Shown here: positions 10,926-59,270 of the stretch, piece after piece
Layout: every line of letters begins with the position of its first letter
Numbering within the stretch: the stretch's first letter is position 1
Made by a program: the position numbers and the translations under genes
DNA from: Candidatus Poribacteria bacterium
GTDB lineage: Bacteria > Poribacteria > WGA-4E > WGA-3G
Reading direction: 5' to 3'
Assembly: GCA_022827885.1 (NCBI GenBank)
Contig: JAJEIP010000088.1
Coordinates: 25,009-89,008, forward strand
DNA: 64,000 bases
The notes under the pieces: generated by a model
Seen by the model: the letters and a program-made list of their open reading frames with translations, nothing else
What the model was told of the DNA's origin: nothing
Database searches by the model: none

Positions 10926-12326
10926 ATGACAAACAAACCAAACATCGTTTACCTCCTCGCAGATCAGATCCGTGCGTGTTCGTTGCCAGTATATGGTGAT
11001 ACGCAGATTGAGACACCACACATCGACCGGCTCGCACAGGAAGGGACCATTTTTTCAAACGCAATCGCTACTGCGCCTGTCTGCACCCCCTATCGTTCCA
11101 TGATGCTCACCGGACGGCACCCACAGACAACCGGACACCTCATTAATTTCGTCAGAACCCGGCACGATGAAATCGGGCTCGGAGACGTTTTCAACAGAAA
11201 CGGTTATCGGACAGCATGGGTGGGAAAATGGCATCTCCACACCGGTTCATTCCCAGAGATCGGCGGACGCGACTATGTCCCTGAAGGACGCGACCGGCTC
11301 GGATTCCAACACTGGCGCGGCTATAATTTCCACACCGACTATTTCAACGGAACTGTGAATCTTGACGATTGGCGGAACGAAAAATGGGAAGGCTACGAAA
11401 CCGATGCCCTGAACCGATACGCTTTCCAGTTCATGGATGATGTGGATGACGATACCCCGTTCTGTCTGTTTATCTCCCCCCACCAAGCGCACTCCACTCC
11501 TTACGAATTCGCACCACCGGAATACTATGACCGGCTACCCACCGAACTCCAACTACCGGAAAATGTTCCAGATTCGGTCAAAGAACAATCCTTAGAAATT
11601 TACCGGCACTATCTCGCCATGACGCTAACGGTGGATGATATGCTCGGTGAACTGATGGCGTATCTCGAAAGAACGGGACGTGTCGAGAATACACTGCTCG
11701 TCTTCAGTTCCGACCACGGAACACAAGGCGGCGGACAAGGCATTAATTTCTGGGCGAAGCGGGAGCCTTATGAAGAATCCATCAAAGTGCCGCTGATTAT
11801 GCGGCTGCCCGGCGTTTTTGAGGAGAATCGCACCTGTGATACACTCACCTCCCCCGTAGACCTATTCCCATCGCTTTGTGGTTTATGTGACATTCAACCC
11901 CCCCGGACCGTCGAAGGCTACGATCTATCAGCGTCTTGGCGTGGTGATGCTGATGCTTTTGAACAGGATGCCGTTTTGACGATGAACTTCGGATCGACCT
12001 ACGATTACCTGATTGATGGTAACGAGTGGCGTGGTGTCCGCACCAAAACGCATAGTTACGCCCGTTGGTTCGATGGTAAACGGATGCTGTATGACGTGGC
12101 GGCGGATCCCCTACAGATGAACAATCTGATTGACGCACCCGAATCGAGATCGTTAGCAGACGAAATGGAGAACACCCTCACAGGCTTGATGGATGCTCGG
12201 AACGACGCACTCCAGCCCGCGACAAGTTATACGGATTGGTATGACGCACAACGTCGCATCGTCCGCAACGCCCACGGTCCCCTCGGCGATCCAGAGGACG
12301 AACCCGATTGGTCCCTACTGAGTTGA
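10926..12326 (+). CDS. Sulfatase (formylglycine-dependent arylsulfatase family)
   Basis: IVYLLADQ N-terminus and the C-x-P-x-R motif in APVCTPYRSMMLTGRHP. Confidence 0.85.
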   Translation: MTNKPNIVYLLADQIRACSLPVYGDTQIETPHIDRLAQEGTIFSNAIATAPVCTPYRSMMLTGRHPQTTGHLINFVRTRHDEIGLGDVFNRNGYRTAWVGKWHLHTGSFPEIGGRDYVPEGRDRLGFQHWRGYNFHTDYFNGTVNLDDWRNEKWEGYETDALNRYAFQFMDDVDDDTPFCLFISPHQAHSTPYEFAPPEYYDRLPTELQLPENVPDSVKEQSLEIYRHYLAMTLTVDDMLGELMAYLERTGRVENTLLVFSSDHGTQGGGQGINFWAKREPYEESIKVPLIMRLPGVFEENRTCDTLTSPVDLFPSLCGLCDIQPPRTVEGYDLSASWRGDADAFEQDAVLTMNFGSTYDYLIDGNEWRGVRTKTHSYARWFDGKRMLYDVAADPLQMNNLIDAPESRSLADEMENTLTGLMDARNDALQPATSYTDWYDAQRRIVRNAHGPLGDPEDEPDWSLLS

Positions 12327-15400: not shown

Positions 15401-15467
15401 GAACCGAATTGGACGAAATGTCTACACTGTCGCAGACCTGACAAAACTCGTAATCGCTGGAAATTAA
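12402..15467 (+). CDS. glyQS: Glycine--tRNA ligase, fused alpha (GlyQ) and beta (GlyS) subunits
   Basis: The N-terminal ~290 aa ([22 protein letters not shown]...[10 protein letters not shown]) is GlyQ. A ~45-aa linker follows, then a GlyS-like body starting [11 protein letters not shown]. Confidence 0.9.
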
Positions 15468-15555: not shown

Positions 15556-15576
15556 TTAAGGAAAAATTAAAAAATG
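15556..15576 (+). promoter_or_regulatory. Leader motif, partial copy H (ttAAGGAAAAATTAAAAAATG)
   Basis: Shares only the 3' half of the motif (SD plus A/T spacer plus ATG). Confidence 0.35.
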
Positions 15577-18500
15577 AAGCAACACCTCTTATGTAATATA
15601 TTGAAGATTTGTATCCATCTCTCGCTCATCGTAGCTACTGCCCTCGTGATAGGGTGTGGTGAGAAAGAGAACAGGGACATTATTGAAGCGCGAGCCGCTA
15701 TTGTTCGCGGAGATTATGCTGCTGCACAAGCCGCGGTCCAGAAGACAGATGCTGCAAATCAGGAGGCGCGACATCTCAAGGCTTTCCTGCAAAACCGCAC
15801 ACGCACTGAGACGGAGGGGTGGCACCAAGCGATTGCGCAATCGAACGCTTATCTTGAAACGCTCGCCGCAGACATCCTCGTTATCTCGTTGATGGAAGAT
15901 CCGGATTCTGACGAACTTGATCGACAGGAGAGACTCGTCCGCTCGCAGAACGCCATCTCTGGCCTCTTCGCTGTGTCGCTTGCTGAAGCGGTCGAAAAAC
16001 GTCCCGAATTGCTCTCTGAACTCGTAGCGCATTCGGATGCGGCTGTCGTTATAGGGCTTTTAGCCGCAGAAAAATGCTATCAACCGAACGCGCTCGCAGC
16101 GGTCTCAGAACTCATGACAAAACTCGGAAATGGAGAAGCGGTTGTTGAACGCTTGCAGCAGGCGATGCATCATAAAGATACAGCCATACAAAAGGAGGCT
16201 GTCCGTTATCTTGGGGCGATGCGAAACCCTGAACTCATCCCAATTTTTGAAGGAGCCCTTGCTGAAACGGAAAATGACCCTGAAGTCGCCTACAGAGCAA
16301 TCGTCGCACTTGAACAATCCGTGGGTAGTAGAGGTACGGTTACCTCGTCCCTACCTGCAGCCATTGTGCCGGGACTCCAACTCGCCCTCAGACACAACAG
16401 TGCGCAGGTCCGAATGCACGCCGCGAAACTCCTCGGGAGCCTCCAAACAGAAACGGCTGTGCCTGACCTCGTCCGACTTCTCGCAGATCCGAACAGTTAT
16501 GTCAAAGATACCGCCATAGGCGCGCTGAACCGTATCGGGGAACCCGCCGTTGCTCCGCTACTCGAGGTGTTAGACACTGGTGCCCGAAACCTTATTCCCG
16601 ATGAGGACCTCGGCTTTGCCACAGAGTATCGGTACATCGCGAGTGCTTATATTGATAGTTTATGGATGAAAAAATATAGGATCGGAACCTTATCAGCCGC
16701 GATCCAGGCCCTCGGGTTACTCAAAATGGAAGATGGCGTAAAGCCGCTCATAGACGAATTAGAAAACGAGGATTTGCAAGATGCAGCGTTGGCGGCACTC
16801 GTCGAAATGCGTGGCGTTGCTGTGTTACCGATGATCGACGCACTCAAAAACGGCACAGACGAAATCCGAGTGAGGGTCGCAGATGCGCTCGGACAAATCG
16901 CGGATCGGCGCGCAATTGTTCCGCTCGTTGAAGCATTGGACAGCGATCCATACAAAGAGGTAAAAGCATTTGCAGCGGTCGGGCTTGGTAATATGCGGGC
17001 ACGTGGTGAGAATAACAGGGTAGTCGTCGCGCTCACGAACGCACTCTCCTATGACGATACAACCGCGACAAATGCGGCAGAGGCACTCGGAAAAATTGAT
17101 GTATCCACAGAAGATGCCGTTCAAAAATTGATTCTCATAGCGATGGAAAAAAATATGCGTGAGACCTTACGCATTGCCGCGCTTACAGCACTCTGGCGGC
17201 TCAAGCCTCAAGAAGCAACGCAGTCGATGCTACTTCTGATGTTCAGTGACGAGACCAGTCCAGTCTTGCGCGCGAATGCTGTCAAGGTGTTGAGCCGAAT
17301 TCAAGCCCCTGAAACGATTCCTGTGTTACTCTGGGTGCTTTCCACACAATTTGACGAAATTTCAGATTTTCAACGGCATATGAAACGAGAATACAAAACG
17401 CTGGATACGCTCCGAACACAGGTTGACACCTTCCAGATTCAGTGGACACCTGACTATCCACGCGCAAACTATCGGACATGGGGTGAACTTAAACCGATTC
17501 CAAGTCTTGTTCGAAGTGAGGTTGCTCGAGCACTCGGTATCATCAAAGGGGACATTGTCATAGAGCCTCTGGCAAACGCACTTCGGGACGATGGGCGCGC
17601 AACCGTCCGACAAAGCGCAGCGTGGGCACTCGGTGAAGCCAAAGGGGATGATGCCATCCCACCGCTGGTTACTGCATTGAAAAAGGATAAACAGGGGGCT
17701 GTCCGACAGGAAGCAGCGATCGCACTCGGGAAAATAAAAGGACTGAAGGTTGTTGACCCACTCGTAGATGCCCTGAAAAACGATAAATATGAAACCACGC
17801 GCTTTGAAGCCGCAAAGGCACTCCGAGAGATTCAAGCCGGGGATAAAGGGCTTGTTGATGTTGTCAAAAAGGGCTTGGGAAGTTTTGATGATGGATACGA
17901 AGTACAATCTGTTCAGGACGAAGTCATTGGCGCATTGGTCAAAGATAACAATATTCCAACAGCCCAATTTGCACTCGATGCTCTGAAATCTGCAGATGAT
18001 GAGTGGGTCCGATGGAAACTCGTTCATGTGATCGGAGCGTCTGCGAAAAAAGTTGGCGTTGATGCTATGGTCGAAGAACTCAAACACCCGAGTTATGTCG
18101 TCCGTAGGCGCGCCGCAGAGTCGCTCGGTGGGTTCAAAGAACGCCGCGTCGTTGAACCGTTGATCGCTATTCTCGAAAATATGGAGGAGATGAAGTCCAT
18201 TCGTGCGGCGGCGGCGTTCTCACTTGGTGCCCTGAAAGATGAACGTGCGTCTGCATCGCTGCTAACCGCACTTTCCGACCCAAATGCCGAGATCCGATTG
18301 CAAGCCGCCGTCGCCTTGGGAAAACTCAAAGATACCAAAGTGATTCCGCGACTGAGTGAGATTGTTGAGGATCCATTAGAACCGGATACTGTCCGTGATG
18401 CTGCTGTGGCGGCACTCGGCAATATTGGGAACATGGCAGCTGAAGCCGTCCTGATGCGTGCTTTGGATGTCCGGATCGGAAATATATCAAAGAATGCTGT

Positions 18501-19443
18501 TGTTGCTTTGGGGCAGCTCAAAAGTGAAGCAGCGGTTCCGGCGTTAATCGCTATTTTGGAAGACAAACGAGTCGTGTTGGATGCGAATACCGACGCGTTG
18601 GCTAAGGCGTCTGCTCGGACAAAAGCCGCAACGGCACTTGGTGAAATTGGGGGGGCGCGTGCCGCTGAGGCGGTTGGAAAACGGCTCGTTGATGATGCGG
18701 AATATATCGTCGCACTTGAGGATGCCGCAAATAGGAAAGCCATCGGCGCAGACGACCTGAAACGGAACTGGAGTTGGGAAGTTTTCGTCAACGCCGCTAA
18801 AAAACTGGATTTACCCGCGTTTGTCGCACCGAAAATGGCAGTCCGTGCTGAGGATGGGTGGGAAAATCACCAAGTCAGAAATGCGGCAATGGTTGCGCTC
18901 GGTAGGTGCGATGCAACGGATGTCGCCTTGGACCTTTCACAACTCAGACAGCGGTTGACTGATCCCGATGTGGACACCCGAAAAGCGACAGCACTGAGTG
19001 TCGGGCAAGCCGGAATTAGCGAACTCATACCGGAACTCGTGCAGATAATGAAAGGTGAAAGCGAAGCCGAAAAGGATGTCCGCCGAGCAGCAACGCAGGG
19101 GCTTGGTGAGTTGGCTGATGAAACAACAACCGACGCGCTCATTGAAGTGATGAACAACGATGAAAACCACGTCGAAATTCGACGCGATGCATCGCGGGCG
19201 TTGGGTAAAATCGCGACGGACACGGCGGTGACAGCGTTGGTGGAAAAACTAACCGCACTCCATGAAGCTCAGATTACGAGAGGTTTCCGTCTTGATGCTA
19301 TCAAGGCGCTTGGAGAGGCTAAGAACTCGAAGGCAGTAACGCTGCTTGAACTGATTCTCCAAGACCAGGACGCCGAGATTCACTTCCAAGCGGCGGCAGC
19401 ACTCTTTGAAATTACAGGTAAAGGCTACGGTTATAACCGATAA
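15574..19443 (+). CDS. Giant HEAT-repeat (PBS-lyase HEAT-like) lipoprotein
   Basis: Lipobox LVIGC near the N-terminus. Dozens of ~31-aa repeats of the form D..VR..AA.ALG.I......PL...L.D. Confidence 0.75.
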   Translation: MKQHLLCNILKICIHLSLIVATALVIGCGEKENRDIIEARAAIVRGDYAAAQAAVQKTDAANQEARHLKAFLQNRTRTETEGWHQAIAQSNAYLETLAADILVISLMEDPDSDELDRQERLVRSQNAISGLFAVSLAEAVEKRPELLSELVAHSDAAVVIGLLAAEKCYQPNALAAVSELMTKLGNGEAVVERLQQAMHHKDTAIQKEAVRYLGAMRNPELIPIFEGALAETENDPEVAYRAIVALEQSVGSRGTVTSSLPAAIVPGLQLALRHNSAQVRMHAAKLLGSLQTETAVPDLVRLLADPNSYVKDTAIGALNRIGEPAVAPLLEVLDTGARNLIPDEDLGFATEYRYIASAYIDSLWMKKYRIGTLSAAIQALGLLKMEDGVKPLIDELENEDLQDAALAALVEMRGVAVLPMIDALKNGTDEIRVRVADALGQIADRRAIVPLVEALDSDPYKEVKAFAAVGLGNMRARGENNRVVVALTNALSYDDTTATNAAEALGKIDVSTEDAVQKLILIAMEKNMRETLRIAALTALWRLKPQEATQSMLLLMFSDETSPVLRANAVKVLSRIQAPETIPVLLWVLSTQFDEISDFQRHMKREYKTLDTLRTQVDTFQIQWTPDYPRANYRTWGELKPIPSLVRSEVARALGIIKGDIVIEPLANALRDDGRATVRQSAAWALGEAKGDDAIPPLVTALKKDKQGAVRQEAAIALGKIKGLKVVDPLVDALKNDKYETTRFEAAKALREIQAGDKGLVDVVKKGLGSFDDGYEVQSVQDEVIGALVKDNNIPTAQFALDALKSADDEWVRWKLVHVIGASAKKVGVDAMVEELKHPSYVVRRRAAESLGGFKERRVVEPLIAILENMEEMKSIRAAAAFSLGALKDERASASLLTALSDPNAEIRLQAAVALGKLKDTKVIPRLSEIVEDPLEPDTVRDAAVAALGNIGNMAAEAVLMRALDVRIGNISKNAVVALGQLKSEAAVPALIAILEDKRVVLDANTDALAKASARTKAATALGEIGGARAAEAVGKRLVDDAEYIVALEDAANRKAIGADDLKRNWSWEVFVNAAKKLDLPAFVAPKMAVRAEDGWENHQVRNAAMVALGRCDATDVALDLSQLRQRLTDPDVDTRKATALSVGQAGISELIPELVQIMKGESEAEKDVRRAATQGLGELADETTTDALIEVMNNDENHVEIRRDASRALGKIATDTAVTALVEKLTALHEAQITRGFRLDAIKALGEAKNSKAVTLLELILQDQDAEIHFQAAAALFEITGKGYGYNR

Positions 19444-22073: not shown

Positions 22074-22114
22074 GAAACCTACCTGACCGAACCGCAAGGA
22101 ATAATTAAAATATG
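22074..22114 (+). promoter_or_regulatory. Conserved leader motif, copy C (gaaacctacctgACCGAACCGCAAGGAAtAATTAAAAtATG)
   Basis: Ends in the sulfatase start codon. Shares an extended 5' part (aaacctacct.accgaacc) with copy D. Confidence 0.5.
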
Positions 22115-23446
22115 TCACGACCCAATGTTCTTTTCATGATCGCGGACGACCATCGATGGGACGCTATCGGTGGCATGGGCGACCCAACGGTCCAAACACC
22201 AACAATGGACTCCCTCATGGCACGCGGGACAACTTTCCGACAAACCCACATTATGGGATCGCTTGTCGGAGCCGTTTGTGTACCAAGCCGCGCCGCCGTC
22301 CTCACAAGTGCTAACCTTTTCCGCAGCGGTGGCAACCAAATTAACCAAGATTTGGCAGTTTGGCCACAGGTCATGCGAGACGCAGGCTATCACACATTTT
22401 TTAGTGGCAAATGGCACAATGATCGACAAACATTTACCGACAGTTTCGATGCCGGTGCGAAGATTTTCTTTGGTGGAATGAGCGATCAATATAAAGTGCC
22501 GGTTTTCGATTTCGATCCAACAGGAAAATACCCGGAGGATGCCAGGTACATTGGAGAAAAGTTTTCTACGGAACTCTTCACAGACGCCGCGGTGCAATTT
22601 ATAGAAAACTACGACGAAACGGATCCTTTTTTCCTCTACCTCTCCTTTACTTCGCCACACGATCCGAGAACAGCACCCGGAGAATACGCGACAATGTATT
22701 CACCGGAGGATATACCTGTCCCCGAAAACTTCCTCCCCGAACATCCGTTCGACAACGGTGAAATGCGCATCCGGGATGAAGTGTTAGCACCCTTCCCGCG
22801 CACGCCAGAAATCGTTCAGCAACACATCGCCGACTATTACGGGATGATTACGCACATGGATGCCGAAATGGGACGCGTGCTAAGCACATTGGCGGCAACC
22901 GGACACCTCGACAACACAATCATCATCTACACCGCCGACCATGGACTCGCTGTTGGGCAACATGGGCTGTTGGGCAAACAGAATCTCTATAACCATAGCA
23001 TCCACGTGCCTTCCATCTTTGCTGGACCGGGGATCCCCGAAGCGGAAACGGTTGATGCGCTAACCTATCTGTATGATGTGTTTCCCACTGTCTGTGATCT
23101 CACCGATGTTACCTGTCCAGATACGACTGAGGGACGCAGTTTAGTGCCATTGATGGATGGTCGTGTAGAACGGGTACGCGCTACAGTCTTCGCGGCGTAT
23201 AGAGACATTCACCGCACCATCAGGGATGGACGTTGGAAATTGATTCGTTACTATGTCTCTGAAGAGACAGGTGCCGGCACGGATTGCATCCAATTTTTCG
23301 ATTTAGGGCAGGATCCTTGGGAGACAACAAACCTTGCCGATCTGCCTGAACATGCCGATCGCATTCGGTCACTCGCTGCAGATATGAAGCAGTGGCAAAT
23401 CGAGACGAACGATTTCATGAAAGACACACCGGTGTTGTTACAGTAG
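22112..23446 (+). CDS. Sulfatase (formylglycine-dependent)
   Basis: NVLFMIADDHRWD and the C-x-P-x-R motif in AVCVPSRAAVLTS. Confidence 0.85.
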   Translation: MSRPNVLFMIADDHRWDAIGGMGDPTVQTPTMDSLMARGTTFRQTHIMGSLVGAVCVPSRAAVLTSANLFRSGGNQINQDLAVWPQVMRDAGYHTFFSGKWHNDRQTFTDSFDAGAKIFFGGMSDQYKVPVFDFDPTGKYPEDARYIGEKFSTELFTDAAVQFIENYDETDPFFLYLSFTSPHDPRTAPGEYATMYSPEDIPVPENFLPEHPFDNGEMRIRDEVLAPFPRTPEIVQQHIADYYGMITHMDAEMGRVLSTLAATGHLDNTIIIYTADHGLAVGQHGLLGKQNLYNHSIHVPSIFAGPGIPEAETVDALTYLYDVFPTVCDLTDVTCPDTTEGRSLVPLMDGRVERVRATVFAAYRDIHRTIRDGRWKLIRYYVSEETGAGTDCIQFFDLGQDPWETTNLADLPEHADRIRSLAADMKQWQIETNDFMKDTPVLLQ

Positions 23447-29874: not shown

Positions 29875-31161
29875 ATGAGATTCACATTTAAGTATCCTGT
29901 GTATCCGACACGGTCACAAGAAAAAACATTATTAGGGTGGTTTGACCACCTGTGTGAACTTCAGAACTCTGCTCGCCACGATCGACTTGTCGCGTATGAG
30001 ACGCTAGGCACTTTTGTTTCGCTCTCTGACCAGCAGACACTTCTCACTCAAGCCCGTGAGAAATATGAGGACTTCCGTGAAGTGCCGCAAGATTTTCAGA
30101 ATCACGCCCTGCGAAGAAACGGTAAAGCGTTCACTACCTTCTATAAACGGTGGAAAGAAAACGCTGGCAAAAAAGGGTATCCTCGCTACAAAAAGCGTGT
30201 CCGTTCTCTAACGTGGAGTCTCCGCAAATATACCAAAGTTGTTCGTCCAAAGACGAAAGATGCGGAAAAGCAAACAGTGCGCGTCCGTCAAAATCCCATC
30301 CGAGAAACCGCATGGAAACATGACCGCTTGAAAGTGCCAACACTCGGAGAAGTCAAGATATACATGCACCGCCCGCTTGAAGGTGACCCCAAAGAAGTCA
30401 CGATCGTCAAAAAAGCGTCGGGGTGGTACGCTCATATTACCTGTGAGTTGCCTGACACTCCGAAAGTTGAACCGACGGATGCGATTGCGGTTGATGTTGG
30501 CACGACACACTACCTAACGACTTCCGAAGGTGAAAAGGAAGATAACCCCCGCTATTATCGTCAAGCAGAAGGTTTGCTCCACAAACATAATCAGACGATG
30601 GCACGTCGAAAGAAAGGGAGCAACCGTTGGCGAAAAGCCGTGCATGCGTCTGCCTTACACCAAGAACGTACTGTCAACAAACGTAAAGACTTTATCGGCA
30701 AACTCGTCTATAAACTCTACCACCACAAAAAAAACAATGTTTTAGTGGCAGAGGATTTAAGCGTCTCCAATATGGTTCAGAACAAACACCTCAGCAAGAG
30801 CATTTCGGATGCGTCTTGGGGTATCTTCTTCAAATGGTGTGCGAGTATAGCCGAAAGAGACGGCTTGCACTTCCACCAAGTTGATCCTAAGAACACTTCG
30901 CAAACGTGCTCGGCTTGTGGTAAGAAATCGCCAAAGAAACTCTCTTTAGCGATACGCACCTTTGATTGTAGTTTTTGCGGCACGGTTTTAGACCGGGACC
31001 ACAACGCTGCGCTAAACATACTTCTCAGGGCAGCTACTGCCCTTCGTGGAGAGCCGTGGGTTACCACTCTCTGTGAAGCGAGAAACACCAACGAAGCACG
31101 AGACGCGGGCTTGCAAAACGCAAAACAACTACTGCTTTTTGCGACAAGTCCAAGTCTTTAG
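29875..31161 (+). CDS. tnpB: TnpB (IS605 OrfB) RNA-guided endonuclease
   Basis: N-terminal MRFTFKYPVYPTRSQEKTL. RuvC triad contexts IAVDVGT, LVAEDLS and DRDHNAALNI. Zn finger CSACG...CSFCG. Confidence 0.85.
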   Translation: MRFTFKYPVYPTRSQEKTLLGWFDHLCELQNSARHDRLVAYETLGTFVSLSDQQTLLTQAREKYEDFREVPQDFQNHALRRNGKAFTTFYKRWKENAGKKGYPRYKKRVRSLTWSLRKYTKVVRPKTKDAEKQTVRVRQNPIRETAWKHDRLKVPTLGEVKIYMHRPLEGDPKEVTIVKKASGWYAHITCELPDTPKVEPTDAIAVDVGTTHYLTTSEGEKEDNPRYYRQAEGLLHKHNQTMARRKKGSNRWRKAVHASALHQERTVNKRKDFIGKLVYKLYHHKKNNVLVAEDLSVSNMVQNKHLSKSISDASWGIFFKWCASIAERDGLHFHQVDPKNTSQTCSACGKKSPKKLSLAIRTFDCSFCGTVLDRDHNAALNILLRAATALRGEPWVTTLCEARNTNEARDAGLQNAKQLLLFATSPSL

Positions 31162-45318: not shown

Positions 45319-45335
45319 GGTTTAGGTGAAAAAGT

Positions 45336-45382
45336 AAAAAGGGGACCGACAGCTACAGAATGCTGTTCTCGGTCCCCTTTTT
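45336..45382. terminator. Bidirectional rho-independent terminator between convergent genes
   Basis: A5-ggggaccga (45341-45349) ... tcggtcccc (45369-45377)-T5. Confidence 0.7.
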
Positions 45383-45404: not shown

Positions 45405-46253
45405 CTATTGGGCATCACCGGCACCATTTCCATTACCGGCATGATCACCATCACCAGCTCCGTTGCCATTACCGGTACCATTTCCATTACCAGCATCAGC
45501 CTCAGGCATTTCAGGTGTTTCAGGCATCTCGGGCATTTCAGGCATTTCAGGTGTTTCACCAGCACCTTCAGGCATTTCAGGCATTTCAGGTGTTTCAGGC
45601 ATCTCAGACATTTCAGGCATTTCAGGCATGGAGAGTGAGACGAAGACACTGTCGTTTGTGGCTTTGGCGTGGCAACCGTGACAACCGTTGCCTTCATGTC
45701 CTGGAACGTGAGATCCCGCCTTCAGCTCGGGCGTGCCATCACTGGAAAGAAAATATTTGGCATACATCCACCCATTGTGGCCCGCATACATCGGATCGTC
45801 GTCTTTCATCATTACAGCAACTTTATCGACAGATGTTTCGGTCTCATCCATAATTGCTTTGACAATTATGGTCCCAACGGGATATTCTGTTGCTCCTGCC
45901 TTGTTCGCCATAGCACCGACCTCGTTGATATAGACCGTGCGTGAGGTAAAAACATCGCTGCCTGGATTGTGAGCTGCCCCGGTTCCCGCAGCATTCCCGG
46001 CTGCAGCAGCCTCTGCTACGGTCATCGTTGGTGCTGGAAGCGCGACATGCGCCCACGACATATACATTGTCGGGTCCAGCAGCTTCGTCATATCCATCAT
46101 CATGTCTGTTGACATGTCATCGCTTGTCGTCATGTCATCGTCTGTCATCATATCGTCAGCGGCTGGTTCTAACATTTTTTGCGCGCGCTCACAAGATACG
46201 AAAGCGACACAGGCGATCAAAATCGCAATCAAAGCGATTTGGGGTTTTAACAT
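45405..46253 (-). CDS. Lipoprotein: Met/Asp-rich linker + cytochrome P460-like heme domain (CHGCH) + (P-E-M)n repeats + Gly/Asn-rich tail
   Basis: Lipobox AFVSC. PVGTIIVKAI...GWMYAKY...GNGCHGCHAKATNDSVFV fits the P460 family with a C-terminal CxxCH. AAGGAG lies upstream. Confidence 0.6.
   Translation of the reverse strand: MLKPQIALIAILIACVAFVSCERAQKMLEPAADDMMTDDDMTTSDDMSTDMMMDMTKLLDPTMYMSWAHVALPAPTMTVAEAAAAGNAAGTGAAHNPGSDVFTSRTVYINEVGAMANKAGATEYPVGTIIVKAIMDETETSVDKVAVMMKDDDPMYAGHNGWMYAKYFLSSDGTPELKAGSHVPGHEGNGCHGCHAKATNDSVFVSLSMPEMPEMSEMPETPEMPEMPEGAGETPEMPEMPEMPETPEMPEADAGNGNGTGNGNGAGDGDHAGNGNGAGDAQ
45501..45629 (-). repeat. In-frame 9-bp tandem repeat (ttcaggcat and variants) encoding PEM/PET/SEM units
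   Basis: Read directly. About 14 units with one short interruption. Confidence 0.85.
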
Positions 46254-46378
46254 TATTAAATATACTCCTTGTCTATTAAAATAAGAATCAACGAAGAGTT
46301 GCAGGCTTTTAAGTGATAAAGTTTATCCATTGTATTCTGTTACTCTTCGAGTTCATCTATTACACAACTTCACTTTAA

Positions 46379-46407
46379 ATAATACGATATTTCGCTTTAA
46401 TTTTCAA
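46379..46407 (-). promoter_or_regulatory. Sigma70 promoter (minus strand TTGAAA-17-TATTAT) of the P460 lipoprotein gene
   Basis: -35 at 46402-46407 and -10 at 46379-46384. Homologous to the promoter at 47136-47164. Confidence 0.6.
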
Positions 46408-46550
46408 TAAAAATATATCGTAGCGGATCGCTATTCGGAGACTGATCCTACTGAACGTAAGTTCTATATAAAAATTTAGAACGCATAGGTTGGCTTAAAA
46501 TGAGACGCAGCATGTTCGACAATCGAGGGATGGTGGAGTGTTGGACAACG

Positions 46551-46596
46551 AAAAGGAGACCAGCAACCATAGTATACAGTTACTGGTCTCTTTTTT
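46551..46596 (-). terminator. Rho-independent terminator after the Met/Asp-repeat gene
   Basis: gagaccag (46556-46563) / ctggtctc (46583-46590) flanked by A- and T-tracts. Confidence 0.7.
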
Positions 46597-46619
46597 AGAA
46601 ATATTGTGAAATGGACTTA

Positions 46620-46979
46620 TTAGGCATCATCCTCCATATCCTCTTCCATGTCCTCTTCCATGTCCTCTTCCATCATGCCGTCGTCCATGGTGTCATCCAT
46701 CATGCCGTCATCCATCATGCCGTCGTCCATCATGGTGTCATCCATCATGGTGTCATCCATCATGGTGTCGTCCATCATGGTGTCGTCCATCATGGTGTCA
46801 TCCATCATGGTGTCATCCATCATGGTGTCATCCATCATGGTGTCGTCCATCTTTTCCGAATCGCTGTCTGCCATCATATCATCCGTAACCGGTGTCATGA
46901 TCTGCTGTGCTCTGTCACAAGATACAAAGGCGAAACAAGCGACCAAAACGGCAATTAAAATCATCTGAAATTTTAACAT
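46620..46979 (-). CDS. Small lipoprotein made almost entirely of Met/Asp(Glu) repeats (MDDTM x8, MDDGM, MEED x3)
   Basis: Signal peptide and lipobox MLKFQMILIAVLVACFAFVSC are homologous to those of the 45405-46253 gene. AAGGAG lies 8 nt before the ATG. Confidence 0.7.
   Translation of the reverse strand: MLKFQMILIAVLVACFAFVSCDRAQQIMTPVTDDMMADSDSEKMDDTMMDDTMMDDTMMDDTMMDDTMMDDTMMDDTMMDDTMMDDGMMDDGMMDDTMDDGMMEEDMEEDMEEDMEDDA
46635..46850 (-). repeat. In-frame tandem repeats: 12-bp unit x3 (46635-46670), then 15-bp unit catcatggtgtc(a/g)tc x~12 (46671-46850)
   Basis: Read directly. Eight consecutive near-identical 15-mers at 46728-46847. Confidence 0.9.
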
Positions 46980-47135
46980 TGTTAGTGCTCCTTATACTGT
47001 AGACTTCCTTATTTCTATATTCTGAAGTCAGTAGTTACGGAAAAGTCACAAATCTCATAGTGCGGCTTGAAAACAATAAAGTTTATTCAGGTTAAATGTG
47101 ACTCTCCACATCTATTGACCATACAATTTGGGTAA

Positions 47136-47164
47136 ATTATACTATTTTTTACTTTAATTTTCAA
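47136..47164 (-). promoter_or_regulatory. Consensus-like sigma70 promoter (minus strand TTGAAA-17-TATAAT)
   Basis: -35 at 47159-47164 and -10 at 47136-47141, about 150 nt upstream of the start at 46979. Confidence 0.65.
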
Positions 47165-47200: not shown

Positions 47201-48883
47201 TTATGGATCGACTTTCAGGATTTCTGAGCGAACTCTCAGGATATAGGGGTTTTTCGGGGTTTGAGCAAAAGCAGTTTCGATTTCACGGCGTGCATCGGGA
47301 ATGCGGTTGAGGCGATAGTAAACGAAGGCAAGTGTGGCGCGATGTATCGGTTGATCGTCGCTTTCGACTGCAGTCTTGGCAAGGGTCAATGCTTCGTCCA
47401 ATTTCCTGTTTTCCGTTGCGAGTAAGGATGCTAATGCCTCTTTGGGAAACGGAACGTCTGGGGCGAGTTGGAGGGCGCGACGGAAATCTATCTCTGCCAT
47501 ACCGGATTTATTCTGTTTTTGGTAAATCTTGCCACGCCACAAGTATCCAGGTGCCCATGTCGGTTCGTGTTGTATCCCCATCGTGAGTGCGTTTGCGGAA
47601 GCTTGTAAGTCCCCGGACTTCTCATGCAAGTTTGCGAGTTGAACGTAGGTGTCCATAAAATCCGGTTCGTGTTGGATAAGCGAGAGATAGTGTGAAACCG
47701 CTGCGGCTTGGTTACCGAGTCTGGTGTCTATCATGCCGAGGTGCAGAAGTGCCTGACGCGAGGTAGGTTCCATTATAAGAACCTGTTGATACGATTGCTT
47801 GGCATCTACGAATTTTCCGAGTTGCATCTGAACGTAGGCATAATCTTTCAAAGCGGGGATAAAGGTTTCATCCGTTTCGATGGCTTTTTGGAGAGGCGTT
47901 AAGGCGCGCTCCGGTTGTTTCTTCTCAATGAGCCAATGGGCTTGCCCGCGATAACGTTCCGCCAGCCTTCGACGATAACGCGCTTCAGCAATTTCGGCTT
48001 CTCTGGTGTTCCCCATATTACTGAGAACAGCTGCGAGCGATTTGTAAAAAATGGGTTCTTCTGGAGCATATCGAATGGCACGTTCATAGAAATGTTGGGC
48101 GACAGTGAATTGTCCGCGTCTCGCGCTAACCTCACCCCGCCCGAAAGCAGCACTGGCGAGCGTCTCGTCTTGGGTGAGTGCTTCCCGAAATACGGCATCG
48201 GCTTCGTCGATGCGGTTGAGTTTGAGGAGAACGTGCCCAAGGTTATTATAGGCAGCGGTCGCCTCTGGATGTAGTTGCACAGCGACGATATAGTATCTCC
48301 GTGCCTGCTCTAAATTTCCACGCTCGGTTTCAATCTGTCCTAAAGCAAGATACCACGCCACGGGGGCGTCTTCACCGGCGCCTTTAACGGCTTTTTGGAA
48401 CCACATATCGGCTTCGTCGAGTTGTTTATTGCGATGATATGCAGCAGCGAGTTTGCCTTGCACCGTAAGCTGTAGGCGGGATATTGTAATATTGCCTTGC
48501 GGGTGTGTTGAAAGGACTCGCAAGGCACGTTGGAAAGCAGTAATAGCGGTGGGATAGTCCTTCAGTTTTGCGGCGGCATCTCCCGTGCCGATGTAGACAA
48601 GTGGAAAATCTGGTGCCGTTTTACCGAGTGCCTGATATAAACGGAGTGCCTCGCGCCATTCCTCCGCTTGAAGCGCACGCTCGGCATCTTTCAACTGTTT
48701 CTGGAATTCTTTAGGAAAGTCCGCTATATCGTCTCCAGATGCCAACGCAGTGAGGATAAACAGAAGTGTAGCAATGACAAAATGGGCCCAGCCATTTGTA
48801 GTCTGTTTACCTATCGCATGTCTTCGGGGCTGATTGTGCCGCATCCGTTTACTTCGCCTCACTCTTCTCTTGTGCAAGTTCAT
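47201..48883 (-). CDS. Membrane-anchored TPR-repeat protein
   Basis: One N-terminal TM segment (FVIATLLFILTALA) followed by many 34-aa TPR-like repeats. The start could also be the Met at 48844. Confidence 0.65.
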   Translation of the reverse strand: MNLHKRRVRRSKRMRHNQPRRHAIGKQTTNGWAHFVIATLLFILTALASGDDIADFPKEFQKQLKDAERALQAEEWREALRLYQALGKTAPDFPLVYIGTGDAAAKLKDYPTAITAFQRALRVLSTHPQGNITISRLQLTVQGKLAAAYHRNKQLDEADMWFQKAVKGAGEDAPVAWYLALGQIETERGNLEQARRYYIVAVQLHPEATAAYNNLGHVLLKLNRIDEADAVFREALTQDETLASAAFGRGEVSARRGQFTVAQHFYERAIRYAPEEPIFYKSLAAVLSNMGNTREAEIAEARYRRRLAERYRGQAHWLIEKKQPERALTPLQKAIETDETFIPALKDYAYVQMQLGKFVDAKQSYQQVLIMEPTSRQALLHLGMIDTRLGNQAAAVSHYLSLIQHEPDFMDTYVQLANLHEKSGDLQASANALTMGIQHEPTWAPGYLWRGKIYQKQNKSGMAEIDFRRALQLAPDVPFPKEALASLLATENRKLDEALTLAKTAVESDDQPIHRATLAFVYYRLNRIPDARREIETAFAQTPKNPYILRVRSEILKVDP

Positions 48884-49823
48884 CGTCCAAAATATGCCAA
48901 GTTTCCTCTGCTTTCCTTTGGGTTAACCATGCTTCAAATTGTTCATTTGCCAACTCCTGCCGAATCCGCTCTGTAATCTCCCCACTGACGTCTTGGTATG
49001 TTTTTTGGTACGCTGAATTATTCCGAATGCGTTCAACGATCTGGTATCCCTCCGAAACGCGGAAGGGTATGCTCCGTTCAGAAACTTGTAATTTCGTTAC
49101 GATAGTCCCCAAGGGTGTGTCTATTTCAAGCGTTGTGACCTCGAGCCTGAGTTCTAACTGTGTTTCATAAATTTCACGGACTGCCTGAAATGTCTGTCCC
49201 TGTTGTAAACGTTCATTGAGTTTTTGCACCAGGGTCTCAGCTTCCTGTTTTTCTACCTCGGATCCATTCTTTGGCATGACGATAAGTAGGGATTTGAAGG
49301 TGACTGTCGGTGGCACAATAAACTCGGCACTATTGGCGTTGTAATACGATTTGGCTAATTGCGCGACCTTTTCGCTGTTGACGGTATTGAAAAATATGCG
49401 GCGAAAGAATTCATCGTAAATCAACTGATCGTAGACCCATGCTTCTATTGCTGATTTTTCCAATTCGGAGTGCTGCAAAGTGCTTTGAAGTGCTGTATCC
49501 GAAGCATATTCGACAGAAATTTCTGCTATTTTTGCGGCAACTTGTGTGTTACGTTCGGTTACGACGATGCCGCGCCGTTCGGCTTCTTGTAGGACGAATG
49601 TGCGGTTGATGATAGTATTGAGTGCCGCGCGTTTCTCAGCAAGGGTCGGCGGCGCGGCGGCGCGTATTCCTAAAAAAACTGTAGCAATACGAAATTCATC
49701 TTCGAGCTCACTACGTGTGATAGCGTCCTCGTTGACGACCGCGACAATTGAATCGATAAGTGTTTGGGTGTATACGTTACCACCGATACAGAATAGGATC
49801 AGAAAGGTGATGTAGCGCATCAT
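48849..49823 (-). CDS. SurA N-terminal-domain periplasmic chaperone-like protein
   Basis: Signal peptide, then LIDSIVAVVNEDAITRSELEDE, typical of SurA/PpiD-type N-domains. Confidence 0.45.
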   Translation of the reverse strand: MMRYITFLILFCIGGNVYTQTLIDSIVAVVNEDAITRSELEDEFRIATVFLGIRAAAPPTLAEKRAALNTIINRTFVLQEAERRGIVVTERNTQVAAKIAEISVEYASDTALQSTLQHSELEKSAIEAWVYDQLIYDEFFRRIFFNTVNSEKVAQLAKSYYNANSAEFIVPPTVTFKSLLIVMPKNGSEVEKQEAETLVQKLNERLQQGQTFQAVREIYETQLELRLEVTTLEIDTPLGTIVTKLQVSERSIPFRVSEGYQIVERIRNNSAYQKTYQDVSGEITERIRQELANEQFEAWLTQRKAEETWHILDDELAQEKSEAK

Positions 49824-52439: not shown

Positions 52440-53144
52440 TTATTCCTTTAATGTTATCAAACCGCAACCGATTTTGGCACCGCCGCCTGGCAGGATTGTG
52501 GGGATCGTCGTCTGCGTGTTGGTGTGGGAGTGTGCTGGTGTCCCTGGTGGATGGAAATGCGGTTGGACCGTCTCCATATTTATGTCCGTTTGCATGTTCA
52601 TGGGTTGCGCGTGCGGATGGGTTAGGAAAGTGTCCCCAGTTTCATGAATCATAATCAGTTTGCCGAGGATATCGGTATTTGGATCTCCACCGAGAGACCA
52701 GAACGGGGTCTTAAATTCCAGAATACCCATGCCTGCCTCGCCGACTGTGATGTTACCGACTTCGCCTACACCGATAGGTGGCGTATCGAGTACCGCTTGG
52801 ACGACAGGGATACCGGATGTCCCCGCTGGAACTTCCATAGGATGCCAATGCGGTCCTATATCGTCGCAGCTGCTACCTGTATGGAGATGAATGGCGTGCA
52901 AGCCCGATGTAGCACCCTGAATTTCGATGACAACATGAACCCCTTCATCCATTTCTGTGAAGGTCGCTGTGCCGGTTAGACCACTCCCCTCTATTTCAGA
53001 AATGGTGGCAACTGCGACTTTGTCAATGGATTCTGTGGTGATCATCTGGGTTGGAATTTTTTCGCAACCCGTTACAAGGCATATTGCGATAATAAGAATT
53101 ATGATTACTTTGCGCGTGTCGCGTTTAAAAGCCATGAAGGTCAA
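52440..53144 (-). CDS. Cu/Zn-superoxide-dismutase-fold lipoprotein with degenerate Zn site and a His/Met-rich insertion
   Basis: Lipobox LVTGC. GLHAIHLHTGSSC, GPHWHP, LIMIHETGD and terminal GGGAKIGCGLI mirror SodC motifs. The insertion HPHAQPMNMQTDINMETVQPHFHPPGTPAHSH lies before the last strand. Start is either the TTG at 53144 or the ATG at 53135. Confidence 0.5.
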   Translation of the reverse strand: MTFMAFKRDTRKVIIILIIAICLVTGCEKIPTQMITTESIDKVAVATISEIEGSGLTGTATFTEMDEGVHVVIEIQGATSGLHAIHLHTGSSCDDIGPHWHPMEVPAGTSGIPVVQAVLDTPPIGVGEVGNITVGEAGMGILEFKTPFWSLGGDPNTDILGKLIMIHETGDTFLTHPHAQPMNMQTDINMETVQPHFHPPGTPAHSHTNTQTTIPTILPGGGAKIGCGLITLKE

Positions 53145-57117: not shown

Positions 57118-57900
57118 TTATTGTTTCAGAGTTCCCCACGTGAGTGCAAGCTTGCCTGAAGGCACAACGGGTAATACTTCGTCGTCAAAGATGAGGTCGC
57201 CGTAGGCGAGACCATCCCAGGCACCGCCCGGTGTCCATCCGATCTGATGTTCGCGCCCGCCACCCTCACAATCGTTGACATGAAAACTAAGCCCGATGAG
57301 TAAGCCATCTTTCGCTTTGAAGTTTTTTCCCTTCGCCGGATTGGCAAACTGGGGATTACCACGGGGCTTTGTTGGGTCGATAGCGACTTCATAGATGTAA
57401 TCATTTCCATTGTTGATCAGCACCCATTCAGTATTGTCTTTGGATGCAGCGGCGGATAGATCCTTACCATTTGCGCCGAGTGTCCACTGAACGAGGCTCT
57501 CTCTGACCATCCCGTTGTCAAAATCAAACATGAATTCGACGCTATCATCATTCCACCAATTGGCATTGGGCGGGTGAATATCTTGGAGTTTATCGTCGGT
57601 GATTTCAACAGCGAAATAGATACGGGTTGGGTCTTGAGCACGCCACGCAACCCTGCCTTGTCCGGTAAAGTCGTTGGCTTTCGGGACACCGTCGCCGACA
57701 TCTTTCAGTTCATCAAACGCAACGATTTCAGCGCGTTCCCATTCGCTGAGATCGCCGTCTACTTTAAGGTTCGTGATTTGTTTGGCGACGTACTGTTTAT
57801 CACGTTTTGCAACTGCTGTTAAATGTGCTGCGAAGAATATCAACGTGACAACTGTTATCAGTCTACCTATGCCCTTACCGAAATTCATAAGTTTTTTCAT
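57118..57900 (-). CDS. Secreted CBM9/DOMON-like carbohydrate-binding protein with C-terminal ...GKLALTWGTLKQ tail
   Basis: GGAGG precedes the ATG at 57900. N-terminal signal/anchor. VDGDLSEWE...AWRAQDPTRIYFAVEITDD...DDSVEFMFD fits CBM9-like domains. Confidence 0.55.
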   Translation of the reverse strand: MKKLMNFGKGIGRLITVVTLIFFAAHLTAVAKRDKQYVAKQITNLKVDGDLSEWERAEIVAFDELKDVGDGVPKANDFTGQGRVAWRAQDPTRIYFAVEITDDKLQDIHPPNANWWNDDSVEFMFDFDNGMVRESLVQWTLGANGKDLSAAASKDNTEWVLINNGNDYIYEVAIDPTKPRGNPQFANPAKGKNFKAKDGLLIGLSFHVNDCEGGGREHQIGWTPGGAWDGLAYGDLIFDDEVLPVVPSGKLALTWGTLKQ

Positions 57901-59270
57901 GAGAGAATTCCTCCGTTTTTCAACAGGTGAATCGGTTGATCCTGTATGCCGTGTTCCTTCATCAATTTGCACGTTCCACACAACAACTGAAGATTGTCGG
58001 AAGTATCCGTGCCGCTTTGGGATCGTGCTACAATGTGGTCAACTGTCATATTGCGAAATGCGGATAACGTTTGGCAGCCATCGCATCTGCCTTCCTGACG
58101 TCCAAAGAGTGTATGCTTAAGGGTTCGTTCCTGCTGGTAAATTTGAGGATGACCCTTTCGATGGATGACCTGCTTGGTAATACCGTGCTGTTCAAGCCGA
58201 AGTTTCGCCAGTTTGAAAGATTCAGGGCTTAAATCAATGCCGATCCAGTGGCGTTGTAGTCGTTCCGCGGCAATACATGTGGTAGCGCATCCGCAGAAAG
58301 GGTCGAGCACCATGTTTCCCGGATTGCTGCTGGCACGAATAATTCGTTCTAACAAAGCGATCGGTTTCTGTGTGGGATACCCGATCCGCTCCTTATTGCG
58401 TGCCGTTAAGTTCGGAATATCTACCCAGATGTTATTTAGTGTTTTCCCTTTTTGTTCGTCAAGATACCGTTTGTATCGAGGGACATTTCCGGGGCGTGTT
58501 TGCACGACGCGTCCGGCTTCGATCTCCTTTAGCATCCGAGATTCCGACCACCGCCAGGTTCTGGTGACACCCATCACGTCATAAGTGAGATGAGAATCGG
58601 GGTTTTGCGTTTGAGCAGTTATAGAAGTATGCGATACGAGTCGTCCGGTACCGGGTTCAACATAATAATATTGGCGTTTGGTTTTTTCGTCGAGATCCTG
58701 CATATCGTAGGGGATCGTGACGGCCTCAGGATTCCATACGAAATCGTTGCTTTTTGAGTATCGGAGGATAAGATCGGAGTCTCGTGCCAATCCTTTTTTG
58801 AGGTTCCCTTTGCTGGTTACGGCTCTTTGCCAAATGATCTCGTTCCTAAAATTGTCTTTCCCGAAAATGCCATCCATCATCATTTTCAGGTAGTGGCTTG
58901 CGTTGTCATCGCAATGAAGATAGAGCGTTCCTGTCGGTTTCAGAATTCGATACATCTCTAACATCCTGATACCCATCATAATCAGATAGGCTTTCATGGA
59001 TGTCCCGTGCGTGAATTCAGCAGTGCTGATGGCGTGATAAAGATCGGGTGCTTTCTCGGCAAGTTCACCGTGCCACGCGCTATCTAAATCGTTTGGTGTC
59101 CAGGAATCTTTGAATGCTGCGCCGGCTGCTTCGCTTTCTGTTGCTGCTTCAAAGGTTCGATTGGAGTTGAAAGGTGGGTCGAGATAGATCAGATCAATGG
59201 TATCAGCGTCAAGACCCCGAAGCACATACAGATTGTCACCTTCAAAGATGGTTCGGTTCTCGACATTCAT
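57897..59270 (-). CDS. DNA methyltransferase (beta-class N6A/N4C, DPPF motif) fused to a C-terminal HNH nuclease domain
   Basis: Motif IV DLIYLDPPFNSN lies near the N-terminus and motif I VLDPFCGCATT lies later. C-terminal CDGC...DHIVARSQSGTDTSDNLQLLCGTCK is HNH. The stop overlaps the downstream start (ATGA). Confidence 0.8.
   Translation of the reverse strand: MNVENRTIFEGDNLYVLRGLDADTIDLIYLDPPFNSNRTFEAATESEAAGAAFKDSWTPNDLDSAWHGELAEKAPDLYHAISTAEFTHGTSMKAYLIMMGIRMLEMYRILKPTGTLYLHCDDNASHYLKMMMDGIFGKDNFRNEIIWQRAVTSKGNLKKGLARDSDLILRYSKSNDFVWNPEAVTIPYDMQDLDEKTKRQYYYVEPGTGRLVSHTSITAQTQNPDSHLTYDVMGVTRTWRWSESRMLKEIEAGRVVQTRPGNVPRYKRYLDEQKGKTLNNIWVDIPNLTARNKERIGYPTQKPIALLERIIRASSNPGNMVLDPFCGCATTCIAAERLQRHWIGIDLSPESFKLAKLRLEQHGITKQVIHRKGHPQIYQQERTLKHTLFGRQEGRCDGCQTLSAFRNMTVDHIVARSQSGTDTSDNLQLLCGTCKLMKEHGIQDQPIHLLKNGGILS

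Follow-up and report, generated by a model that had tools for sequence, protein, structure and literature searches.

Two paralogous lipoprotein genes

The 64-kb window of Candidatus Poribacteria DNA analysed here (contig JAJEIP010000088.1; all coordinates are window positions) carries on its minus strand two adjacent paralogous genes, each a transcription unit of its own. One, at 45405-46253 (-), encodes a 282-aa predicted lipoprotein of the cytochrome P460 family, identified by its open reading frame (ORF), by a match to PF16694 and by 384 homologues. The other, at 46620-46979 (-), encodes a 119-aa haem-less lipoprotein made largely of Met/Asp repeats, recognised by its ORF and its composition and by the 13 homologue clusters that were found directly. 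A first-pass annotation of the sequence had placed both ORFs at these positions and on this strand. The gene pair, with its promoters and a private structured leader, is a conserved module specific to Poribacteria. In the library searched, no paper was found that links Poribacteria with cytochrome P460, with Met-rich proteins or with methionine sulfoxide reductase (Msr), and we know of no earlier description of a P460 protein combined with a Met/Asp paralogue and a private leader RNA, in agreement with the first-pass opinion that this is not a described system.

Transcription of the small gene would start from a sigma70-like promoter at 47136-47164 (-) (TTGAAA-17-TATAAT, 11/12 matches), which is kept in orthologues. 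A structured 5' leader follows at 47024-47113 (-), in which GGAGAGTCAC pairs with GTGACTTTTC in a long-range stem around about 50 nt, and the unit ends at an intrinsic terminator, a 16-bp stem followed by a T run (46556-46590, -). The P460 gene has a homologous sigma70-like promoter at 46379-46407 (-) (TTGAAA-17-TATTAT), a leader at 46278-46354 (-) that is paralogous to 47024-47113 and contains the stem CGAAGAGT / ACTCTTCG, and an intrinsic terminator at 45335-45382 (-), with a fold energy of -28.5 kcal/mol (z -5.6) and a U run behind it. The Shine-Dalgarno sequence AAGGAG precedes both genes.

Both products are predicted by pattern scan to be lipoproteins, with a basic N-terminus, a hydrophobic core and a lipobox ending in ...AFVSC. 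The signal peptide and lipobox are encoded at 46917-46979 (-) in the small gene (MLKFQMILIAVLVACFAFVSC, lipobox Cys21) and at 46191-46253 (-) in the P460 gene (MLKPQIALIAILIACVAFVSC, also supported by alignment), and the lipobox Cys is invariant in the 20-sequence family alignment. In the P460 protein the signal peptide is followed by a Met/Asp-rich linker (residues 22-58, 46080-46190, -; ERAQKMLEPAADDMMTDDDMTTSDDMSTDMMMDMTKL) that is modelled with low confidence except for a short helix at its end. Then come the haem domain (residues ~59-207, 45633-46079, -), a 9-bp tandem array of 13.9 copies encoding PEM/PET units (45502-45629, -) and a Gly/Asn/Asp-rich C-terminal tail, seen in the ORF and in the alignment, that ends in ...GDAQ (45408-45501, -). 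The small gene contains a 15-bp array of 11.1 copies at 94% identity, encoding MDDTM/MDDGM (46686-46851, -), and a 12-bp array of 3.4 copies, encoding (MEED)3 (46633-46673, -). All three arrays were delimited with Tandem Repeats Finder; they are the repeats that the first-pass annotation had read by eye, and the CHGCH motif and GNG tail that it reported are likewise present. The repeat DNA also gives ORFs in other frames and on the opposite strand, which figure in the mechanical ORF list as by-products of the repeats.

A divergent P460 haem domain

The earlier suspicion of a P460-like domain is borne out by the hidden Markov model of the family: PF16694 (Cytochrome_P460) matches residues 102-204 with an E-value of 1e-10 and 42.5 bits, against a gathering cut-off of 27. 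When a profile of the Poribacteria family was compared with the Protein Data Bank (PDB), M. capsulatus cytochrome c'-beta and P460 were retrieved at E 1e-3 to 6e-3. An AlphaFold2 (AF2) model of the core (residues 45-212), built on a 71-sequence alignment, has a mean predicted local distance difference test (pLDDT) of 80.7 and a predicted template modelling score (pTM) of 0.80, and the best 21 PDB matches to this model in Foldseek are all P460 or c'-beta structures (probability 0.7-1.0, TM 0.34-0.56).

The c-type haem motif CHGCH (residues 191-195, window 45669-45683) lies close to the C-terminus of the domain. Arg105, Lys132, Cys191, His192, Cys194 and His195 are invariant in the 20-sequence alignment; with 71 sequences, Arg105, Lys132, Cys191, Cys194 and His195 stay so and His192 nearly so. 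Positions were counted through HMMER alignments, and the roles of the residues were taken from Table 2 of PMC11928373. There, the haem cross-link is made by Lys70 in the Ne, Lys78 in the Mc and Lys106 in the Ns enzyme (PMC11928373). The invariant Lys132 (45858-45860) is aligned with Lys78 of McP460 and with Phe61 of McCP-beta, which answers in the affirmative whether the cross-link Lys is conserved, and Arg105 is aligned with the capping Arg50 of M. capsulatus P460. On this alignment, the window protein is a genuine P460-family member of the Lys type. Its haem domain, which is a divergent, new lineage within a known family, is located outside the cytoplasm, predicted to be lipid-anchored, between disordered segments rich in Met and in Asp, Glu and Pro.

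One active-site position departs from the catalytic type. Hydroxylamine-oxidising P460s need a distal carboxylate, Glu96 in NeP460 and Asp102 in McP460, and the P460 of Nitrosomonas sp. AL212, with Ala131 at this position, is inactive on hydroxylamine (PMC11928373). In the window protein the position is held by Val147, and across the family by V, T, M or I; the family alignments contain no conserved carboxylate within two residues either side of position 147 on the same strand. The protein thus resembles the hydroxylamine-inactive AL212 enzyme rather than those with Glu96 or Asp102. Lacking the distal carboxylate, the P460 domain may have no hydroxylamine oxidase function, and a binder or slow detoxifier of nitric oxide (NO) and hydroxylamine (NH2OH) appears more likely than an efficient oxidase. 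Both molecules are involved in P460 chemistry, and maturation of the cross-link depends on peroxide (PMC11928373).

The structures available for comparison are those of N. europaea CytL (2JE3), M. capsulatus P460 (6HIU), AL212 P460 (6AMG) and McCP-beta (6HIH). With them the window protein shares the Pfam family, the fold, a CXXCH near the C-terminus, export, and the positions of the cross-link Lys and the Arg cap. Similarity to the solved P460s is nevertheless low (profile E ~1e-3; TM 0.34-0.56). The characterised P460s are soluble periplasmic proteins, whereas this one is a predicted lipoprotein, and unlike the solved P460s the Poribacteria proteins have Met/Asp-rich disordered flanks and include tandem domains and dockerin or spondin-N fusions. 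Their folded cores also differ from the solved ones in being 4-13% Met: the mean is 8.1% and the range 4.2-13.4%, that is, 2-6 fold over the background of 2.1% in the proteome of the window.

The Met/Asp-repeat protein

From the N-terminus, the small protein consists of the signal peptide ending at lipobox Cys21, a conserved early mature region DRAQQIMTPVTDDMM, (MDDT/GM)n and (MEED)3. It has no match in Pfam or NCBIfam. The 11 units of the 15-bp array vary solely at synonymous GAT/GAC sites and between Thr and Gly. The mature part of the window protein is 30% Met and 34% Asp, with Asp and Glu together reaching 42%. Over the mature parts of 36 small proteins the composition is 35.3% Asp, 26.0% Met, 12.4% Gly and 5.1% Glu, with only 1.3% Lys plus Arg, 0.4% His and essentially no aromatic residues. 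Successive Met residues are adjacent in 31% of cases and 2-4 residues apart in 58%. The small protein is a strongly acidic, disordered chain, predicted to be membrane-tethered, with a Met or Met-Met every 3-5 residues. To our knowledge, at 26-34% Met these are among the most Met-rich natural proteins known.

The repeat unit itself changes wholly from one genome to another. MMDDG, MMDDD, MMDDT, MDD (in ~40 copies), MDGD and MDMD are found, and further genomes have EEPM, DPMA, PEPDM, GMGGMANDDDDDD or TGMGD. Unit and copy number turn over fast, then, while composition and Met spacing are preserved. When a D/M-rich segment is defined as at least 7 Met and at least 9 Asp or Glu within 30 residues, all 63 such segments among the ORFs of 761 kb of Poribacteria DNA sit at the P460/small-gene locus (63/63). 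A chance origin of the tracts is excluded by this concentration at one locus against a Met background of 2.1%. We also rejected the idea that D/M linkers are a general habit of lipoproteins in this organism, since the other lipoproteins of the window have ordinary linkers and no other tract occurs in the 761 kb.

Intact orthologues of the small gene, with products of 90-168 aa, are present in many assemblies at chromosome level (5-6 Mb). The repeat arrays are consequently not assembly artefacts, a danger that the first-pass annotation had raised, and the copy number in the window is given as assembled. In several orthologues (L002, 8001-8405; P0122, P0125, P0129 and P0132) the protein ends in RRHDG or RYHDG, which is the MMDDG repeat DNA shifted by one base, and in L002 a second D/M ORF follows. 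Such ends could reflect sequencing error, gene decay or phase variation based on slippage. Nearly all members of the family, P460 and small proteins alike, terminate in ...G[D/E]xQ; the small protein of the window ends in ...DDA instead, because a TAA stop (46620-46622) replaces the CAA (Gln) codon of its relatives.

Since they contain almost no Lys or Arg, the small proteins escape proteomics based on trypsin, and gene prediction programs often overlook them. This would explain why they have not been described before.

The tails of the P460 proteins are exchangeable in the same way. P0004, which is 96% identical to the window protein in the core, bears MDEMMDETMMDD in place of the PEM/PET array. 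The family often has tandem P460 domains, and in two-domain members it is a D/M linker that joins them. Met may give way to His: the tail of L053 is (DHVDDDT)n, rich in His and Asp, an Asp/His linker takes the place of the D/M linker in the outgroup lipoprotein P460 P0215, and an occasional His is found inside the repeats of L017 and L054. A full-length AF2 model of the window protein, used only as a sign of tail disorder (pLDDT 53 overall), falls below pLDDT 50 at residues 20-53, 205-221 and 248-282, consistent with disordered tails.

Other modules are attached to P460 domains in some relatives. A type I dockerin ends the members in L022 (6001-7422) and L018 (6001-6876), which hints that some P460s might be attached to a cohesin scaffold, perhaps on the cell surface. 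Spondin-N is fused to P460 in L037 (6001-7272 and 7650-8549) and in L038 (229-1491), and a neighbouring lipoprotein in L037 with the same signal peptide carries spondin-N alone. In P0161, P460 is fused to a Peripla_BP_6 solute-binding domain.

Paralogy and a shared leader RNA

The first-pass annotation had described the N-termini of the two proteins as nearly identical. They are homologous, but over the first 36 residues the identity is 64%, which is well short of that wording. The homology continues in the upstream DNA, where it spans the leader, about 90 nt, and reaches the -35 box, and it is because promoter and leader were duplicated too that the paralogy is unambiguous. The first 36 residues of the small protein are 82% identical across 25 orthologues, whereas small and P460 N-termini agree at 60% of positions when taken from one genome and at 57% when taken from different genomes. 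As identity within genomes about equals that between them, and the small-gene N-terminus is so well conserved, the duplication is old and both copies have been kept. A recent gene conversion between the paralogues is rejected by the same comparison.

The two proteins also share the order of their tails, in which Met/acid repeats are followed by a stretch rich in Gly, Asn and Asp, and the terminal Gln is common to the P460 lipoprotein and most small-protein orthologues. The small protein P0131 even has a tail of the type TPE plus GNG...GDAQ, as does the P460 protein in the window. With its N-terminal module and C-terminal tail organisation thus shared, the small protein looks like a P460 protein minus the haem domain. 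The earlier notion of a repeat lipoprotein fused to a P460 domain was right as to the haem domain, which is a true one, and is better reversed as to the fusion. The simplest history, judged from the sequences, would be that a duplicated P460 gene lost its haem domain.

The leader is conserved as a structure. Among 22 small-gene leaders the share of paired cells is 89%, where slid controls reach 45-62%, and compensatory changes are seen in 4 of the 10 pairs; in 45 pooled leaders the share is 84.7% against 51-58%. For RNAalifold the alignment was trimmed, as three outlier rows had masked the structure. A covariance model of the leader (R1) has 52 matches in the 761 kb, each directly upstream of a small or P460 family gene, and it recognises the P460 leader of the window with 29.1 bits (E 0.002). 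An Rfam scan of window positions 43-49 kb at E<=1 gave no known RNA family. The shared leader of ~90 nt may be a cis-regulatory RNA.

Distribution and gene order

All homologues of the 282-aa protein that come with a source name, among the 384, are from Candidatus Poribacteria. A scan of one genome per GTDB species with family-specific peptide patterns gave 57 loci, 57/57 in Poribacteria. An exhaustive profile search of 1.84 billion representatives returned 201 matches, 38 of them at E<=1e-30; the farther matches are multi-domain P460-like proteins with a GTxIVKE Lys motif and ordinary linkers.

A small Met/acid-repeat lipoprotein gene is adjacent to the P460 gene in 41 of 60 sources, upstream in 26 and downstream in 15, the latter placement being that of the more divergent clade. 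Adjacency is lacking in 17 of the 60; a contig end truncates five of them, and in one the gene lies 3.5 kb off. About 40 loci show the order MR_MLE, SurA_N, TPR, small gene, P460 gene, alpha-amylase (on the opposite strand), TIG and FAA hydrolase. Conservation is much higher in the housekeeping neighbours than in the P460 protein: MR_MLE is 91-99% identical in all but one locus, against 40-76% for P460.

Neighbouring genes and other features of the window

The genes around the pair thus encode TPR, SurA_N, MR_MLE, alpha-amylase and TIG proteins, and no metal efflux or resistance operon is among them. Directly upstream lies a gene for a membrane-anchored TPR protein of 560 aa (47201-48883, -), followed by one for a SurA_N-like chaperone (48849-49823, -), both syntenic in about 40 loci. 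The TPR protein passes the model PF23914 for the TPR of the apocytochrome chaperone CcmH/CycH (49.2 bits against a threshold of 42). TPR and SurA_N-like proteins could be maturation or chaperone partners of the P460 protein, although TPR models cross-match readily. A role of the TPR protein as a Slam-type exporter of surface lipoproteins is not supported, given a PF24575 score of 34.6 against a threshold of 35.2, the missing barrel domain and, again, TPR cross-matching.

At 5.5 kb from the pair, a gene at 52440-53144 (-) encodes a lipoprotein of the Cu/Zn superoxide dismutase (SOD) family (PF00080, 58.7 bits) with a His/Met-rich insertion near the C-terminus, HPHAQPMNMQTDINMETVQPHFHPPGTPAHSH; the first-pass annotation had singled it out as a Cu-type SOD-fold protein, and rightly so. 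Some bacterial SodC proteins bear metal-capture extensions, of which the insertion is reminiscent. Its link to the pair is only that of a conserved gene order, in a clade where gene order is generally conserved.

Elsewhere in the window, a TnpB / IS605 OrfB-type gene (29875-31161, +) has OrfB_IS605 and Cas12f1-like TNB domains, and a similar element lies at the edge of L001. In a single 457-aa ORF (57897-59270, -) an N6/N4 DNA methylase domain is joined to an HNH endonuclease domain at the C-terminus, and in a 1021-aa ORF (12402-15467, +) the alpha and beta subunits of glycyl-tRNA synthetase are fused. A 1289-aa predicted lipoprotein consisting largely of HEAT repeats (15574-19443, +), two sulfatases (10926-12326, +, and 22112-23446, +) and several PhyH dioxygenases are also present. 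Eukaryote-like repeat proteins and the use of sulfated glycans are typical of Poribacteria.

Possible functions of the pair

The first-pass annotation had proposed MsrP/MsrQ, copper efflux genes or sigma/anti-sigma pairs as neighbours to look for. Neither MsrP/Q, MsrA/B nor stress sigma/anti-sigma genes were found in the 64-kb window or in the ~12-kb flanks of 59 loci. Genes for copper efflux, copper oxidases, copper sensors or copper chaperones are likewise missing from the window and the related flanks, as are nitrogen-cycle genes. The function of the pair has therefore to be argued from the composition of the proteins and from the haem partner.

We tentatively favour, at somewhat less than even odds, the view that the pair is an oxidant sink, disordered and rich in thioethers, around an NO- and NH2OH-binding haem protein. 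The exposed Met thioethers would be the working groups, and their conversion to Met sulfoxide would provide a sacrificial sink of high capacity, maybe a recyclable one, taking up reactive species of oxygen, nitrogen or the halogens at the envelope. In sponge tissue, where nitrifiers and host oxidants abound, the sink would shield the haem protein, which itself would bind or detoxify NO and hydroxylamine. Asp and Glu would keep the Met-rich chain soluble and extended, and the stand-alone paralogue would add sink capacity.

The closest likeness is to MrpX of Azospira suillum, the only periplasmic Met-rich peptide that has been established experimentally; Met makes up 20% of it and charged residues 44%, it is described as unfolded and not conserved in sequence, and hypochlorite oxidises it rapidly (PMC4436054). 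Like it, the Poribacteria small proteins are exported, rich in Met and charged residues and presumably unfolded, they keep a composition rather than a sequence, and they are tied to a haem-enzyme pathway making reactive species. Their composition (26% Met, ~40% acidic, 0.4% His) fits the description of MrpX better than that of any metal protein. The NO, NH2OH and peroxide chemistry of the haem partner and the SOD lipoprotein in the conserved neighbourhood also speak for a sink, and the Met enrichment within the folded core is more easily understood as an antioxidant feature than as a metal site. The small protein is not homologous to MrpX, however, and differs from it in being predicted to be lipid-anchored, purely acidic (1.3% Lys plus Arg), built of tandem repeats and higher in Met, and in being a paralogue of the haem protein itself, with neither a yedYZ/msrPQ operon nor SigF/NrsF nearby.

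Several observations weigh against an oxidant sink. MrpX shares its operon with yedYZ, whereas the pair has no Msr linkage in the window or the flanks. The promoters look strong and constitutive, not stress-specific. In the L053 tail and the P0215 linker His stands where Met is usual, as would be expected of metal ligands, and the Met spacing, MX2-4M and MM, is also that of Cu(I) 'Mets motifs'.

These last points lead to a soft-metal buffer or chaperone, which we regard as possible but doubtful. In such a system Cu(I) or Ag(I) would be captured by the Met arrays within the oxidising envelope, with Asp and Glu either as Cu(II) ligands or as the residues that make the chain soluble. The small protein would serve as a membrane-tethered copper sponge, and the P460 tails would shield the haem enzyme from copper or pass copper to cuproenzymes such as the nearby Cu/Zn-SOD. 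The Met gaps (31% adjacent, 58% 2-4 apart) are those of Mets motifs in Ctr1, CopA and PcoA. The His/Asp tail of L053, the Asp/His linker of the outgroup P0215 and the occasional His in the L017 and L054 repeats point the same way, as does the syntenic SOD lipoprotein with its His/Met-rich insertion. The Cu/Ag proteins known to us other than SilE and PcoE also combine Met with conserved His, and we know of no copper requirement of P460, which counts against a copper buffer here. SilE and PcoE, disordered periplasmic 'molecular sponges' for Ag and Cu, are precedents for such a device, but they pair Met with ten conserved His and are encoded in efflux operons (PMC5008109). The Poribacteria proteins resemble them and the Met-rich regions of CopA, PcoA, CueO and Ctr1 in being disordered, extracytoplasmic and Met-rich, with a thioether spacing compatible with Cu(I)/Ag(I). 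They are not homologous to SilE/PcoE, and they differ in that His is essentially absent, that ligand positions are not conserved, composition alone being so, and that no copper gene or metal-resistance operon accompanies them. Moreover, a metal-site model does not need the Met enrichment that reaches the folded core.

It is rather improbable that the D/M segments are mere flexible acidic tethers or brushes binding Ca2+/Mg2+. The tails would then set the distance between P460 and the membrane, or attach a partner as in the dockerin relatives, Met would be chemically idle, and the small gene would be a domain-deletion remnant of little function. Some observations could be read in this way: the tail position is modular, with dockerin or spondin-N there in some relatives, the tails are hypervariable in unit and length, the frameshifted RRHDG repeats suggest decay or errors, and 17 of 60 sources have no adjacent small gene. 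Yet a Met content of 26% against a background of 2.1% has been kept through at least 10 unrelated repeat units, for example GMGGMAND6, when any polar residue would serve, and the linkers of outgroup P460 proteins are ordinary ones. Promoter, leader, Shine-Dalgarno sequence, signal peptide (82% identity) and terminator of the small gene have all been maintained, in 41 sources and in both clades, and its arrays have expanded, to ~40 units, rather than eroded.

That the genes are artefacts, assembly errors or non-coding simple repeats with chance ORFs, can practically be set aside: short-read assembly can mis-size a 166-bp array at 94% identity, and the ORF list does include ORFs that the repeats produce in other frames and on the opposite strand, but the coding frame comes with a promoter, AAGGAG, a terminator and a conserved signal peptide with lipobox, its repeat units differ synonymously or conservatively, and intact orthologues occur in dozens of independent assemblies, including single-contig chromosomes of 5-6 Mb.

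A more far-reaching proposal, which we consider unlikely as a whole, would join an oxidant sink or copper buffer to the leader. It supposes a two-part envelope system in which a Lys-cross-linked P460 has given rise to a lipid-anchored poly(Met/Asp) 'thioether polymer' and is regulated together with it, the two forming a renewable redox or Cu(I) buffer for life among nitrifiers and host oxidants, under the control of a private leader RNA that senses stress or a ligand.

Significance

Work on cytochromes P460 has been almost confined to nitrifiers and methanotrophs, where they are of interest as sources of nitrous oxide (N2O) and NO. A candidate phylum of abundant sponge symbionts has a conserved, fast-evolving and predicted lipid-anchored lineage of its own. 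Because the cross-link Lys is kept and the catalytic carboxylate is missing, the sequences point to a different job for the Poribacteria P460, the scavenging of NO or hydroxylamine in a nitrifier-rich host. The shared leader RNA gives a starting point in the search for the inducing signal. The small partner, whose composition has been kept through the full turnover of its repeats, amounts to a natural experiment on what exposed thioethers are for, a sink for oxidants or a ligand for soft metals.

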